From IMG/VR virus record IMGVR_UViG_2703718794_000007: a DNA stretch of 39,067 nucleotides; one strand, 5' to 3'. Position numbers and translations under genes: made by a program. The notes beneath the pieces were generated by a model that made no database searches, was not told the origin of the DNA, and worked only from the letters and a program-made list of their open reading frames with translations. Positions 997 to 34,926 of the stretch are shown piece after piece (the stretch's first letter is position 1; each line of letters opens with the position of its first letter). This DNA comes from a virus (Duplodnaviria; Heunggongvirae; Uroviricota; Caudoviricetes).

Positions 997-1192
997 TACG
1001 TATCCTTATACCTGAAATCTTCGCAAGTATGCCTGGCCGCGAGATTATGGCACACTTGTCCGGTTAACTCTCGTCTCATACAGGTAACACAAACGTGAAA
1101 ATCCTTGTTGATGAAAAAAATGATGATTTAATTTATTGATATAAAAGGATTTATATCAGCACGTGTCCACGTAGTGACCACATTTTCGAGTT

Positions 1193-1236
1193 ACAGATAA
1201 CACAAAGCCCGTTTTCACGGGCTTTGTGTTATCTGT
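1193..1236. repeat. Perfect 19-bp inverted repeat (arms 1193-1211 and 1218-1236, 6-nt loop); strong stem-loop, not a canonical intrinsic terminator
   Basis: ACAGATAACACAAAGCCCG / CGGGCTTTGTGTTATCTGT are exact reverse complements; no flanking T-run on either strand. Confidence 0.5.
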
Positions 1237-1263
1237 GATTGTGGCTAAGCCACATGATTTATG

Positions 1264-2157
1264 CTATTTCCAGTTACAAGCAGCTTGAAGTGGTTTTAGC
1301 GCGTTTGACAGGCCGTTTAAATTGAAAGTTGCACTTACAGGGCTCTCATTATAAGGAGTTATTTTTGTATACATTTTGTTTGAGTTGGCTAGTTTTCGGA
1401 TGAAATCAATGTCATTACCTTTATAAAAAACAGCCTTTGTATCTGTAGATACTAGCCAGTTTCGCTCAACTGCTTTCTGTTTATCAAGACGATAAAGCAT
1501 GCTGGTTTGTTCAAGGCCTAAATATACATCCCAACTAAGAAATACTTCGGTTTTCTTTTCTCGGCAAGCTATAAACAGAGTAGGAGTAACCGCTTCTCCA
1601 AATGGAGTTCTGATATAATCATCACTTTCTAACGATAAAATTACATTTTTCGAATCATCAATTGGCGATGTAGTAATGGATGTGTGCCATTTTCCTACAT
1701 CTGTGGCTTTCTCTAATTTTGATTCAGCTTGAACAGCTTTATCCTGTGGGAATAGTTTATCGTAGCAGTTTAGTCTGGCTTCTTTATCATTTTCTGCTCG
1801 GCATTTAGATATCTCAGAAAGATTTGGTTGCTGAGCCTCTGTTGTTACTGGCTTTTCCGTTTTAGATTTTGAGTTTACAGATGGAGTAAATGTTGGAGAA
1901 AAAAAACGATCATAACAAGATAAACGTCTGTCATCATCTTTCTCATCAGGGCATTGATCTCTGCTTTCGAATTTTTCAGCAACTTTCGTTCGAGTCGGTT
2001 GTATTGACTTATCGTAACAAGAAAGTCTGTCTTTATTATTTTCTATTGCTCGGCACTGGAGTACTGCATTGAAGTTATTATGTTCAGTTGCTGCGTGAAC
2101 AGGCAGTACACTAATTGATATAAATGATGCACCTATAGAAAAAATTATATTTTTCAT
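1264..2157 (-). CDS. Secreted hypothetical protein with three tandem Cys-pair repeats
   Basis: 297-aa ORF; N-terminal signal-peptide-like segment; motif C-x9-RL-(S/N)-CYD-(K/R) recurs three times about 40 aa apart; AT-rich. Confidence 0.6.
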   Translation of the reverse strand: MKNIIFSIGASFISISVLPVHAATEHNNFNAVLQCRAIENNKDRLSCYDKSIQPTRTKVAEKFESRDQCPDEKDDDRRLSCYDRFFSPTFTPSVNSKSKTEKPVTTEAQQPNLSEISKCRAENDKEARLNCYDKLFPQDKAVQAESKLEKATDVGKWHTSITTSPIDDSKNVILSLESDDYIRTPFGEAVTPTLFIACREKKTEVFLSWDVYLGLEQTSMLYRLDKQKAVERNWLVSTDTKAVFYKGNDIDFIRKLANSNKMYTKITPYNESPVSATFNLNGLSNALKPLQAACNWK

Positions 2158-2161
2158 TTTG

Positions 2162-2494
2162 TTATCCTTTTGGTTTAGTAAGAAACACTAAAATTCCGAT
2201 AATGATATCGCCAATAACCCATAAACTTCCAATGGTAATTAAACCTAAGCCTGTACCAATAACTGCACCGGCTTTTTCGGCATCGGATGTAGCATTATTT
2301 ATTATTTCACTAGTGCCTCCCAGTCCAACTAAAAGCGTATAGATCATAAAAATATTAAATAATATAAAAATCCACTTAATGAGCTTTCCAAAAAATGAAC
2401 GCTTAAGTTTTTTTATTTGTTTACCGCAAGCAGGGCAATACAATGCTGAATCGCTCACCTCTTTCTGGCATTCAGGACATTTGATTAATGCCAT
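2162..2494 (-). CDS. Zinc-ribbon membrane protein
   Basis: 110-aa ORF; N-terminal CPEC...CPAC zinc ribbon followed by two hydrophobic helices; 4 bp upstream of the Cys-repeat gene, likely one operon. Confidence 0.55.
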   Translation of the reverse strand: MALIKCPECQKEVSDSALYCPACGKQIKKLKRSFFGKLIKWIFILFNIFMIYTLLVGLGGTSEIINNATSDAEKAGAVIGTGLGLITIGSLWVIGDIIIGILVFLTKPKG

Positions 2495-2724
2495 GTAATC
2501 CGCCTCCTTTGGATCAATACGAGTTGATATTTGTTACAAAACATTTTGATTTTATCAGATTTTTTTTTATTGATAAGTGTCAATTGATTAGCTGGTATAG
2601 AGTGAGACATAAAGAAGGTCAGATCTGTATCAGTAGTGATGCAAAAATCCCACAGTTTCATGGAATTTTTGCATTTAGAGCCGTGAGATAGGGTGCCTTA
2701 TCGACCTTACCCTGGCAACCGATT

Positions 2725-2746
2725 GACGGGGGATTACTCCCCCGTC
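2725..2746 (-). other. GC-rich stem-loop at the 3' end of the hok-like transcript
   Basis: GACGGGGGA-TTAC-TCCCCCGTC, 9-bp stem, just downstream of the hok-like stop on the minus strand. Confidence 0.4.
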
Positions 2747-2755
2747 GCGGTTTCC

Positions 2756-2896
2756 TTACTGCTTACACTGTAAGAACGCCGCAAACTCCGCTCCCCAGAA
2801 ACTCATCCGTATTTCGCACAGCGAACCGTGCAACATCCAGATGATGAGGATTACCGTCACGCAGAACGTGATGGCTGTAAGCGATTTTTGCGACAT
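2756..2896 (-). CDS. Hok/Gef-family type I toxin-like small membrane protein (46 aa)
   Basis: Hand-translated ORF below the 60-aa track cutoff: MSQKSLTAITFCVTVILIIWMLHGSLCEIRMSFWGAEFAAFLQCKQ; SLCEIR and E-x-AAFL-x-CK motifs are Hok-family hallmarks; AAGGAG RBS upstream. Confidence 0.6.
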   Translation of the reverse strand: MSQKSLTAITFCVTVILIIWMLHGSLCEIRMSFWGAEFAAFLQCKQ

Positions 2897-3086
2897 AGCA
2901 CTTGCTCCTTTTCCGGAGAGGCGCTAACCTTTCACTTGCTTAGGGTAGACGGTTAGGGCCTCGGTTAAACAAAAGTGTTTTCCGGGGCCTTTCCACATCT
3001 GGCCTTCGGGTATTCCCTCCGACCATCAGCCGAAAGGCACCCGCGCGTAATCTATCGCTTTTTTGTTACTCCGGCAATTCTGCTTG

Positions 3087-3347
3087 TTAATTCTTAGGTA
3101 AAGGCAAACTCATCTGATTGTTTCCCCTGTGTGAAGCTGGTAGCTCATGCCACGGGATACCTTCTGAAGAGTGAACGCCGGAGGCGTGTTTCGATGTGAA
3201 TTTATGGAAAGCTTCCAGTGTTGAGAAGCATACGCCGCATTCCAGATTGTTACACTGGTAATACTTTTGCCGCACGGTGTTTGAATCATTTTCCGGACGA
3301 CTTGTGCGGATACGGGCAGATGCGCCACAAAGCGGACAACGGAACAT
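3087..3347 (-). CDS. ogr: Ogr/Delta-family zinc-finger late transcription activator
   Basis: 86 aa; MFRCPLCGASARIRTSR...YYQCNNLEC matches the P2 Ogr C-x2-C...C-x4-C pattern. Confidence 0.85.
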   Translation of the reverse strand: MFRCPLCGASARIRTSRPENDSNTVRQKYYQCNNLECGVCFSTLEAFHKFTSKHASGVHSSEGIPWHELPASHRGNNQMSLPLPKN

Positions 3348-3538
3348 AGCGACCTCCCTTAACGTGGTGTTGCCGCTATTCTAGATTGTACGATCCCTAA
3401 TTCCAACTAACAGCTCGCTCTGTGCGAAGAGTGAAAATTGAACTTTCAATAGTTGTTGAACTTCCATACATCCAATGTGAAAATTCATACGTTCATAATA
3501 GTTAAAATTTAAAATATTGTATATCAGGTGAATAAAGC

Positions 3539-4561
3539 ATGGGAAGAGATATAACGCTGTACCCTAAAAAAGCAACTAGAAACGAACTTAAAAATTACCT
3601 TGAAAATTTAGGTTTTAAAAGGTGTAAACATTTGTGGGAATGGCCCCAAGGAACGTTGAATTACTCTTGGTTTGATGATACGGACTTCAAATCTACAGAT
3701 GGAGTTTCGGCTGATATATATCCTGTTTCAAATGACGAACTACACATATCTGGTAATAAATGGGCATTGCATGTGCGTAATTTATATAGCGCTAGTTGGC
3801 ATGATGTAAAAATGCTTAATGATGTTCTAAAAGGCGCACGGAGTCTTTTTGGTGGAACACTTATAGGTGATTATGGGAAAAATAGGTACGCTCCTCTATG
3901 GAAGGATTCTAGTAGTCCGATCAGTCGTGGCATTTCTTCAATATTTAATCATGTCCATCATGAGATTTCCGCTGTTAAACATGCCTTACCTGAACCTTCT
4001 ATTAAATTAAACCTACCGGAAGATGGCGGCTTATTCGAATACTTTGATTACATGCAATGTATGGATCCCAGTAGAGTTATATATAATGGATTAGTACCTT
4101 TTGCGGTTGCTATGTTTGAATATTTTTTCTCTAGAGCTTTTCAAATACTTATAAAGTACGATCCTTTCGCAATAGCAAAAAGAACATCGTATAAGCAAAA
4201 AGTTGATTTTGATATTCTGCTTGAGATAGAGAAAGGAAATATTTCAATAGAAAGTGTTATTGCAAGAAATTACACTTTTCAAAACTTAACCCACCTAAAC
4301 AAAGCATATAAAGAGTGGCTGGATATAGATGTGAGAGCGATTCTTTATAAGAAAAAAAGAATTGGAAAATCAGTTGATTTTCTTGAGAATCGAATTTCTG
4401 AAATCATACAATATAGACATGGGATAGTTCATCACTTTGAGTTGGATAGGACCTTAAATCGGGATGGATATATTCATATATTAGATGCGATAGAAAAAAG
4501 CATAATTGAATTTATCCATTACATAGAAGGCAAATACAAATTTAAATTAAATGCGTATTAA
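3539..4561 (+). CDS. Hypothetical cargo protein; possible C-terminal HEPN-like Rx4H motif
   Basis: 340-aa ORF, AT-rich, opposite strand to the flanking ogr and D; C-terminal YRHGIVHH; no family recognised. Confidence 0.65.
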   Translation: MGRDITLYPKKATRNELKNYLENLGFKRCKHLWEWPQGTLNYSWFDDTDFKSTDGVSADIYPVSNDELHISGNKWALHVRNLYSASWHDVKMLNDVLKGARSLFGGTLIGDYGKNRYAPLWKDSSSPISRGISSIFNHVHHEISAVKHALPEPSIKLNLPEDGGLFEYFDYMQCMDPSRVIYNGLVPFAVAMFEYFFSRAFQILIKYDPFAIAKRTSYKQKVDFDILLEIEKGNISIESVIARNYTFQNLTHLNKAYKEWLDIDVRAILYKKKRIGKSVDFLENRISEIIQYRHGIVHHFELDRTLNRDGYIHILDAIEKSIIEFIHYIEGKYKFKLNAY

Positions 4562-4681: not shown

Positions 4682-5791
4682 TCACTCTGTTTCTGCTATC
4701 CATTCCGGGATTTTTGCCTCAAGCTCAAGCTGTGTGGTAAAGCCGCTGTTATCAATGGTGTGCTCGGCTTTTGCAATAATCCAGTCCTGATTATCAATCT
4801 CGCTTTTAAAGCCTGTTACCGTGCCATGCATTTCGGGGTAGAGTTCTGCGCGTCCGCGTGCCAGCATGATGGAGAATGATGCGGCTCCGCGTTGTAGCTG
4901 CTGCCACTTTGCCGCCGCTGCGCGTCTTGCTGCCTGCTCGTTCTGATAAGTCTTGCGTAACACAAACACATTGCCTTCCGCGCCTTCCATATAATCACCT
5001 TCACGGCTGCTGCTTTTCTCCTTTTTGGGTTTTGGCGGTTTGCGGCGTTTCACGCTGACTTTTTTCTTTTTCCCGTAATTAAGATCAAGCCAGTAGGCGC
5101 GTACACCTGTATACGCCTCGCGGTCAGCAATGCGGAACTGATGGCGATCGCCACTGCTGCGTGTAATGGCGAACGAGGGCAACGGCTGGCCCTGTGCGTT
5201 CACGCCACCACCTGGCATGATGAATAACAGATTGCCGCTTTTTACCGTGGTGATTGCGCCCAGCATTTCCGCCATGCGCGTAAGGAAGGACATGTCGCTT
5301 TCTTCGGTCTGGTCGGCGTGGTCGATTTCGATATCCATCAGCATTTCGCTGATTTGCGGTTTCAGACCATACCGATGAGCGATGGCGGATACCACACGCT
5401 CAACGGTCACATCATGCCAGGACACTTCACGTTTAACGTTAAATTCATCCCGAAAATCTGCGCTTCTGGCTGAAACCGTCAGCCTGTCCGGCGCTCCTTC
5501 GTGAGCGATTTCATCAACAATGTAAGTGCCTTTTTCTGTCAGCGGTTCTCCTTTCCAGCCAATGAGAACCGTCAGGCGCGCGCCCCGTGGCGGTAGCTGC
5601 AACTGACCATCCGCATCATCCAGCGTGATGGTGAGCTGGTCCGCTTCAAATCCCCGGTTGTCGGTCAGTGACAGGCTCATCAGGCGCTCTGCCACGCCGG
5701 ACAGTGTTTCCCCCTCCGCGAGAATATCAAAATCCGGCATTTTCACGGGGTCTGTGCTCTGACTGAGCAATTGCATGGTGGTATCGGTCAT
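4682..5791 (-). CDS. D: Tail/late control protein D (gpD)
   Basis: ORF 4682-5923; start placed at the in-frame MTDTTMQLL methionine with a GGGAGGG RBS; gpD family by memory. Confidence 0.85.
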   Translation of the reverse strand: MTDTTMQLLSQSTDPVKMPDFDILAEGETLSGVAERLMSLSLTDNRGFEADQLTITLDDADGQLQLPPRGARLTVLIGWKGEPLTEKGTYIVDEIAHEGAPDRLTVSARSADFRDEFNVKREVSWHDVTVERVVSAIAHRYGLKPQISEMLMDIEIDHADQTEESDMSFLTRMAEMLGAITTVKSGNLLFIMPGGGVNAQGQPLPSFAITRSSGDRHQFRIADREAYTGVRAYWLDLNYGKKKKVSVKRRKPPKPKKEKSSSREGDYMEGAEGNVFVLRKTYQNEQAARRAAAAKWQQLQRGAASFSIMLARGRAELYPEMHGTVTGFKSEIDNQDWIIAKAEHTIDNSGFTTQLELEAKIPEWIAETE

Positions 5792-5948
5792 CTGTTCCCT
5801 CCCTGTGCGGCATGGTCGCATGTGCGTGCGTAGGGGGTTACTGCTTTTTGTTGTCGCCGTGGCGGGAGAACGGCGCAGGGGTGAGATTACGCGCGTGGTG
5901 GGTGATGATTGTTGCCGAATCATTTAACGGATACAAGGGGCTGAAGCT

Positions 5949-34604: not shown

Positions 34605-34926
34605 GGTGTGGCCCCTTGTGTAGTAAGTTGTGAAAACTCACCATCCAGAGCTGCGAAACTGTGGGTGGCGAGACGTACGAGGTTCGCAGTACCGGCTACA
34701 CAAGAACCCGGCCCGACCGAAGTCGGCCCCGTACGCCCCGCCATAATTCTGACGCGAAAAAAACGTGGCAATACAGTACGCACAAAAAAACCGCTGGCGC
34801 GGTTGTGCGCTTGTGTAGTCAGCAGGCTGCGAAACCCGACACCCGTTTTGTGAGGTGCAGCGGAAATGTAACCTGACTGATTGCGGCATGGCAAGCGGTT
34901 TTTTTGTGTGTGCATGTTCTGGTTTC

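Follow-up and report, generated by a model that had tools for sequence, protein, structure and literature searches.

The hok/sok locus (parB) of plasmid R1 encodes a small hydrophobic peptide of the Hok/Gef family, 52 aa in length, from an mRNA of about 350-400 nt, the leader of which also encodes, in cis, a short antisense RNA that ends in a terminator hairpin. A fold-back architecture has been described for the R1 hok mRNA in which elements at the 5' end (tac) and the 3' end (fbi) pair with each other, and it is known that an overlapping frame, mok, must be translated up to the hok ribosome binding site (RBS) for Hok to be synthesised. The -35 hexamer of the R1 sok promoter overlaps the hok RBS and is followed by a 17-nt spacer, the two hexamers being TTGCGC and TATCCT. 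Several chromosomal hok loci did not mediate post-segregational killing when tested by others.

A working toxin-antitoxin (TA) system carried by a phage, hokW-sokW of the Stx2 prophage Sp5, has been shown to aid phage release and is a precedent for a role of such systems during prophage induction (PMC8621323). A preprint on the diversity of Hok (Escalera-Maurer et al., bioRxiv 10.1101/2025.08.07.668861) reported an enrichment of hok in prophages and included a toxicity panel in which only three named sequences were non-toxic, none of them from cluster 72. That study was confined to coding sequences and left aside mok, Sok, the structure of the mRNA and where hok lies relative to ogr and att. 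Two temperate phages of the Peduoviridae are of relevance here, namely phiSM of C. rodentium, which is functional and for whose attP experiments gave a position 6 bp into pdxB (PMC6456863), and P88 of E. coli K88, which has been induced and forms plaques (PMC5285337).

The DNA analysed here is a stretch of 39,067 nt from a tailed phage (IMG/VR record IMGVR_UViG_2703718794_000007), referred to below as the window. With a probability that we would put at about 85%, positions 2684-3064 are a phage-borne type I TA cassette of the Hok/Sok family, lying in a phiSM/P88-like prophage of the P2 family (Peduoviridae) at the 5' end of pdxB, between ogr and a variable cargo slot (Table 1). The module is genuine, of the hok/sok type and probably functional, and it is ordinary phage cargo that has already been annotated. 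Much of this is already known, the protein being annotated in RefSeq and both the prophage enrichment of hok and the peptides of cluster 72 being covered by the preprint. The significance of the analysis beyond correct annotation is therefore small: hok/sok is assigned to the phage as cargo, together with the adjoining 1.5 kb, and coordinates are now given for predicted RNA parts that had not been annotated, namely Sok, the tac and fbi elements and both promoters. Minor points of interest are the missing mok and the position of the module beside a cargo slot.

Table 1. Features of the ogr-hok region and the adjoining prophage end (window coordinates)
Feature	Position	Strand	Remarks
att core AAAATCCTTGTTGATGAAAA, 20 bp	1098-1117		prophage junction on the ogr side, in the 5' end of pdxB
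Conserved phage arm beside the att core	1118-1190		eight loci that differ in cargo become homologous again at 1190
Variable cargo slot	1191-2683		between hok cassette and att arm; GC 34-38%
TagO/VasI-like protein	1264-2157	-	Pfam VasI, 89.6 bits; in cargo slot
Zn-ribbon membrane protein	2162-2494	-	in cargo slot
Whole hok/sok cassette, discrete mobile block	2684-3064	-	same borders seen in P2-like and Stx phages and in E. albertii, Salmonella, Klebsiella and Citrobacter
Predicted full-length hok mRNA, ~352 nt	2691-3042	-	MFE -158.9 kcal/mol, z -7.7; similarity to unrelated contexts starts and stops at these borders
3' fold-back element, fbi-like, ending AAGGCACCC	2691-2705	-	complementary to mRNA 5' end
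3' GC-rich hairpin	2725-2746	-	5 of 9 pairs with compensatory changes
hok CDS	2756-2896	-	46 aa and stop; HokA-like; cysteines C27 and C44; dN/dS 0-0.29
Predicted sok promoter	2902-2930	+	-35 TTGCTC 2902-2907 (overlaps hok Shine-Dalgarno), 17-nt spacer, -10 TAACCT 2925-2930
Shine-Dalgarno AAGGAG	2905-2910	-	8 nt before hok ATG; conserved in alignment; sequestered in a predicted local hairpin with CUCC
24-codon leader ORF	2924-2998	-	in frame with hok; UAG stop 27 nt before hok ATG
Predicted Sok antisense RNA, ~55 nt	about 2938-2992	+	single-stranded 5' tail, terminator hairpin 2955-2991, UUU; ends inferred
5' element, tac-like, GGGUGCCUUUCGGCU	3028-3042	-	pairs with mRNA 3' end
Predicted hok promoter -10 TAGATT	3049-3054	-	inferred from conservation
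ogr/delta-like late-gene activator	3087-3347	-	Pfam Ogr_Delta, 52.4 bits; directly upstream of hok, same strand

The hok gene and its product

The hok ORF encodes the peptide MSQKSLTAITFCVTVILIIWMLHGSLCEIRMSFWGAEFAAFLQCKQ, in which the motifs SLCEIR and AAFLQCK are present. An earlier note on this DNA had described a 46-aa ORF with these motifs (the second as AAFL-x-CK), a strong RBS, a GC-rich stem-loop on its 3' side and a distance of about 190 bp to the ogr stop, and all of these elements were recovered: the AAGGAG is suitably placed, the stop of the ogr-like gene lies 190 bp upstream of the hok ATG, and a 9-bp GC-rich hairpin directly follows the hok stop (-19.7 kcal/mol, z -4.7). Alignment to Pfam, which the same note had proposed, placed the peptide in the Hok/Gef family (PF01848 HOK_GEF, 30.1 bits against a gathering score of 22), residues 7-44 aligning to positions 5-42 of the 42 in the profile. 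The peptide also matched PHROG 251 at 82.8 bits. Its best NCBIfam match was HokA (NF007290) at 35.8 bits, below the equivalog cutoff of 89 bits, and by these scores it is HokA-like and not HokA. In common with the chromosomal HokA of E. coli, both of its cysteines are encoded directly, so that TadA editing would not be needed for either. Comparison with 11 homologues gave dN/dS values of 0-0.29, indicating strong purifying selection and thus a maintained gene as opposed to a chance ORF. We regard 2756-2896 as a real and intact gene for a Hok-family membrane toxin.

The earlier note had called this ORF unannotated, which holds for the ORF track available to its author but not more widely. RefSeq contains an entry for exactly this peptide (WP_000078920.1, 'Hok/Gef family protein'), every match covering the ORF among the matches listed from E. 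coli genomes carries a Hok/Gef annotation, and the RefSeq-annotated records of phages P88 and 500465-2 use the label 'MokW-like host killing'. The label 'MokW-like' in the phage records stems from the breadth of PHROG 251. The window locus is distinct from hokW-sokW (Sp5/933W), from which it differs both in the leader and in the peptide, HokW being 51 aa long and beginning MKQQKAM; furthermore, hokW-sokW sits in a lambdoid phage whereas the window cassette sits in a P2-like one. Much closer relatives are found in cluster 72 of the preprint, of which two members were included in the toxicity panel: 72_1621, which is one residue (V16A) from the window peptide, and 72_1589, which is the form found in Stx phages and shows 82% DNA identity in our comparison (10.1101/2025.08.07.668861).

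The hok mRNA and a predicted antisense RNA

The anatomy of the RNA was derived from 18 homologous loci of very different contexts and from an alignment of 14 trimmed mRNAs. Similarity among the loci begins just before the -10 hexamer TAGATT, spans the segment from GGGUGCCUU (3042 to 3034) to AAGGCACCC (2699 to 2691) and then ends. The -10 hexamer is kept as TAGATT, TAGAAT or TAGAGT in 16 of the 18 loci, 6-7 nt before GGGUGCC; no -35 hexamer is conserved among them. A generic sigma-70 scan called neither this promoter nor that of sok, and both assignments are based on conservation and on analogy with R1. In the predicted fold of the 352-nt RNA the first 15 nt are paired with the last 15 nt, and this helix is retained in the RNAalifold consensus. 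When the structure composed of the 5'-3' helix and the 3' hairpin was evaluated over the alignment, 98.3% of cells could pair as against 31-55% in controls with slid partners, and nine pairs showed two-sided changes as against 0-2 in the controls. The 5'-3' helix itself contributes 11 pairs, four of which are changed on both sides (alignment columns 10-13 with 359-362), the controls being far lower. Long-range pairing of the mRNA ends of the tac/fbi type is therefore a feature that this locus has in common with R1, although the compensatory changes in the helix largely separate E. coli-type from Salmonella-type sequences and may represent few independent events. Folded alone, the first 103 nt of the mRNA pair their 5' end with the next segment, in a manner that resembles the metastable nascent hairpin of R1 hok.

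Just past the fbi element, and inside the variable cargo, a 14-bp A/U-rich inverted repeat was seen by eye on the minus strand (AUGCAAAAAUUCCA...UGGGAUUUUUGCAU, 2639-2674). It has no U-run, whereas a canonical terminator occupies the equivalent place in P88 (by eye from the alignment), so that the primary hok transcript of the window may have another 3' end than the one predicted. An Rfam match to CsrC at 2715-2838 (13.3 bits against 61) was dismissed as noise.

An antisense RNA of the Sok type had been expected in the earlier note but was thought impossible to delimit by eye. The first part of that statement is in line with a predicted sok gene that has a conserved promoter and terminator hairpin, while for the second, predicted limits can now be given (Table 1). 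As in R1, the predicted promoter has a -35 that overlaps the hok RBS and a 17-nt spacer. Both hexamers fall in well-conserved columns (two Salmonella sequences among the 14 read TATCCT at the -10), and the predicted start is about 7 nt downstream of the -10. The terminator hairpin with its UUU folds at -22 kcal/mol. In all 14 sequences a C.A mismatch on the hok strand of this hairpin corresponds to a U.G pair on the antisense strand, which fits a hairpin that has been selected on the Sok strand; in addition, one closing pair shows GC to AU compensation in three sequences. The Rfam model named 'sok' (RF01794) matched over its full length (1-157) at 3042 to 2883 with 51.9 bits (E 2e-10). The alignment to Rfam that had been suggested thus recognised the leader with a low E-value, yet at a score below the gathering score of 59 bits, which is a difference from R1. 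The match lies on the hok-coding strand, starting at the 5' end of the mRNA, and the consensus of the model matches mRNA-sense primers used for hokW (PMC8621323). What it identifies is therefore the leader of hok and not the extent of Sok.

A clear departure from R1 is found in the translation of the leader. No mok frame reaching the hok RBS is conserved among the 14 homologues in any of three frames with ATG, GTG, TTG or CTG as start. The window does have a short leader ORF in frame with hok, but its length differs in close relatives and its ATG is absent from the Salmonella copies, so that it is probably no true mok. The absence of mok is, as judged from the alignment, a trait of the whole subfamily and not a loss in the window copy. 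Without mok the hok locus could be poorly translatable. In the predicted folds the segment GGUUAGCGCCUC pairs alternatively with the Sok-target strand GAGGCCCUAACC or with the RBS region (CUCC...GGAG and AGCGC...GUGCU), and blocking the Sok target in the fold restores the hairpin that sequesters the RBS. From this modelling we infer that Sok might free GGUUAGCGCCUC and so allow the RBS-sequestering hairpin to re-form, and/or that it might promote decay of the mRNA. The predicted accessibility of the RBS changes little across the full-length, truncated and Sok-blocked folds (0.33-0.48), differences that are too small to prove the proposed switch, and in the RNAalifold consensus two-sided covariation was absent from both the Shine-Dalgarno hairpin and the leader stem. 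The control of translation in a Hok locus that lacks mok is a modest lead.

These observations bear on the question of whether the locus is an inactive relic, with an intact ORF but no killing because the mok-dependent coupling of translation is missing, as has been proposed for several chromosomal hok loci. Such a reading could draw on the lack of a conserved mok frame where R1 requires mok translation, on the failure of the chromosomal hokA, hokB and hokC to mediate post-segregational killing in the hands of others, and on the modest RBS exposure predicted in every fold. We nevertheless consider it improbable. The peptide is under strong purifying selection, and conservation across phages, chromosomes and plasmids, with compensatory changes, extends to both promoters, the RBS, the 5'-3' helix and the hairpin of Sok. 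The cassette is present in 1586 of 5426 complete E. coli genomes (29%) and is nearly always full length, peptides that are nearly identical to that of the window are not among the named non-toxic ones, and mok is lacking throughout the subfamily.

The prophage boundary and the cargo slot

The region 2500-3400 is 100% identical to the chromosomes of E. coli IHE3034, UMNF18 and others. Genomes that lack the prophage, K-12 among them, match the left flank only as far as 1117, 23 nt into pdxB. The 20-bp sequence AAAATCCTTGTTGATGAAAA ends at the same position, and a second copy in IHE3034 marks the other end of the prophage, between the integrase and pdxB. It includes the 17-bp attP of phiSM, ATCCTTGTTGATGAAAA (1101-1117), and the context expected of a phiSM-like member of the Peduoviridae that integrates at pdxB, with this core at the 5' end of the gene, is thus present. 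No other copy of AAAATCCTTGTTGATGAAAA occurs in the whole window, near 2700 or elsewhere, even when three mismatches are allowed. By sequence comparison the ogr-proximal junction is some 1.6 kb to the left of hok, and the boundary of the prophage is fixed at pdxB and not at about 2700. Integration exchanges the first codons of pdxB (1095-1117). The gene is annotated as 385 aa in IHE3034 and 378 aa in K-12, from which it appears that the phage end supplies a new start, and this is in agreement with the finding that phiSM lysogens stay prototrophic (PMC6456863).

It had been suggested in the earlier note that the right att site would lie at about 2700 beside hok, and that the phage may have integrated into or next to a hok/sok-like locus, which on this reading would be chromosomal. 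The attraction of this view is that hok starts 190 bp after ogr, which in P2 is usually the last gene before att, and that host genes begin no more than about 240 bp from the cassette in some relatives, serS in L019 being one example. The comparison with prophage-free strains that was proposed to decide the matter placed attB at the 5' end of pdxB, and the empty flk-pdxB site of K-12 and of thousands of other genomes contains no hok; the only copy of the core, where K-12 homology ends, is the one in Table 1. Moreover, phiSM, PhiR44_2 and P88 have the cassette within their genomes, and it accompanies ogr at no fewer than five different sites of integration. A chromosomal hok locus at the attachment site is refuted by the att mapping, and we would give it next to no chance; the hok locus is instead assigned to the phage.

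The ends of database contigs were also considered as a possible att site, many IMG/VR contigs stopping 3 nt after the hok stop (L017, L022, L025 and others, length 2141). These ends were taken to reflect gene-based trimming of predicted prophages and were rejected as att sites. It seems that automated trimming cuts at hok, with the systematic loss of the cargo slot and the att arm.

Beyond 2683 at least 11 unrelated continuations were found in 56 loci. These include, in relatives of the window prophage (loci L013, L021, L029, L067, L076, L077 and L090 were compared), a RES-domain protein, an N6/N4 DNA methylase, a TM2/Zn-ribbon protein, a hexapeptide transferase and an IS, while in other loci host genes follow straight after the cassette (serS, pheT/ihfA, pgsA, tomB). 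It is these varied continuations, together with the resumption of homology at 1190 in eight loci, that define the cargo slot and the att arm. PADLOC reported no defence system for Hok or for the neighbouring cargo proteins. As a further modest lead, the interval between hok and attP may be a general hotspot for accessory genes in phiSM/P88-like phages. A wider proposal combines two elements: that the 46-aa HokA-like cluster 72 is a hok/sok variant without mok which uses the GGUUAGCGCCUC leader-stem/RBS-hairpin switch, and that the cassette forms the fixed inner border of an attP-side slot in which cargo (RES-domain protein, DNA methylase, TM2/Zn-ribbon protein, TagO-like protein) is exchanged in phiSM/P88-like Peduoviridae, perhaps stabilising the prophage. 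We put this forward tentatively, holding it to be well short of an even chance.

Distribution of the cassette and its possible role

The block formed by ogr and the cassette (3383 to 2683) is conserved at 93-100% in about 70 of 80 IMG/VR contigs and is also found in the published genomes of phiSM, PhiR44_2 and P88 (95-96% identity for phiSM and P88). In phiSM and PhiR44_2 the genes for the TagO-like protein, the Zn-ribbon protein, hok and ogr occur in that order inside the genome; phiSM has the pdxB att core, the cargo and the ogr-hok block in common with the window. In P88 the ogr region is followed by the same hok, at a distance of about 750 bp from attP, but the att site (GCCACCCGAAGGTG, positions 1-14 of the record) and the cargo are different and the integrase is only 44% identical. 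The presence of the cassette within phiSM and PhiR44_2, and within P88 with its different integrase and att site, indicates that hok/sok is carried by the phage, in contrast to the plasmid-borne locus of R1. Phage 500465-2 was rejected as evidence for packaging, its record including the host genes flk, yfcJ and fabB.

The cassette is also found alone. With borders at about 3064 and 2684-2691 it occurs in Stx lambdoid phages at 82% identity, at a locus distinct from hokW; the possibility that this match was hokW itself was rejected, since the match is to a second, separate hok locus with a product of 46 aa, from which the peptide HokW differs. The cassette alone was found in addition in E. albertii, Klebsiella and Citrobacter, beside a relaxase gene, and it is rare on plasmids (35 records). 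On Salmonella enterica chromosomes (L096 2501-3987 and L097 2501-3643) three copies lie head to tail, each with its own leader and fbi element.

The following mechanism is proposed by analogy with R1 hok/sok, the present data supporting the architecture alone. The hok mRNA would be transcribed from its own promoter and would be kept translationally silent, with the RBS and the start codon buried, by the helix that joins the 5' end (GGGUGCCUU...) to the 3' end (...AAGGCACCC). Sok, short and presumably unstable, would be made from the promoter that overlaps the hok RBS. After refolding of the mRNA, Sok would pair with nt 51-105 of the leader, blocking expression and probably triggering cleavage by RNase III. 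If synthesis of Sok were to stop, whether through loss of the prophage, the shut-off of transcription by an infecting phage or events of induction, Hok would be translated and inserted into the inner membrane, where it would collapse the membrane potential and kill or lyse the cell. What the phage might gain is prophage addiction, abortive infection or, as shown for hokW-sokW, assistance with lysis.

The last of these could in principle be the main role of the cassette, Hok being made in the lytic cycle, possibly by read-through from ogr, and speeding permeabilisation of the membrane, as opposed to a role in addiction or defence. Deletion of hokW-sokW halves the release of Sp5 and its Sok vanishes after induction. 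Furthermore, hok follows ogr directly on the same strand with no terminator-like site between them, and the ogr-hok block is conserved as a unit. HokW, however, belongs to a different Hok cluster, and the occurrence of the cassette away from phages, in the Salmonella tandem triplets and beside a relaxase gene, argues for an autonomous TA function. A predominant role in lysis is in our view rather unlikely, although, being a proposal on biological function, it does not conflict with the preferred reading of the locus as a phage-borne TA cassette.

Several other features of the window prophage were recorded. A 340-aa ORF of low GC content (31-36%; 3539-4561, +) separates ogr from gene D and runs on the opposite strand. 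Its match to RiboL-PSP HEPN is weak (22.1 bits against a cutoff of 28.4), and NCBIfam, PHROG and PADLOC gave no match. This HEPN-like ORF distinguishes the window prophage from phiSM and PhiR44_2, in which it is absent and D comes directly after ogr, and it may be an accessory or defence gene. The adjacent gene D-like tail ORF (4682-5923, -, 413 aa) is intact in the window, while its counterpart in IHE3034 (L001 8183-9027) is apparently truncated or disrupted, being represented by a 786-bp 'VgrG/Pvc8 family' CDS and a pseudogene fragment. The window therefore does not derive from IHE3034, its 100% identity to that strain over 2500-3400 notwithstanding. Finally, two Rfam matches above the gathering score lie in the early region of the prophage, one to the C4 antisense RNA (34661-34748, -, 83.2 bits) and one to the Hfq-binding RNA isrK (34784-34858, -, 61.9 bits).
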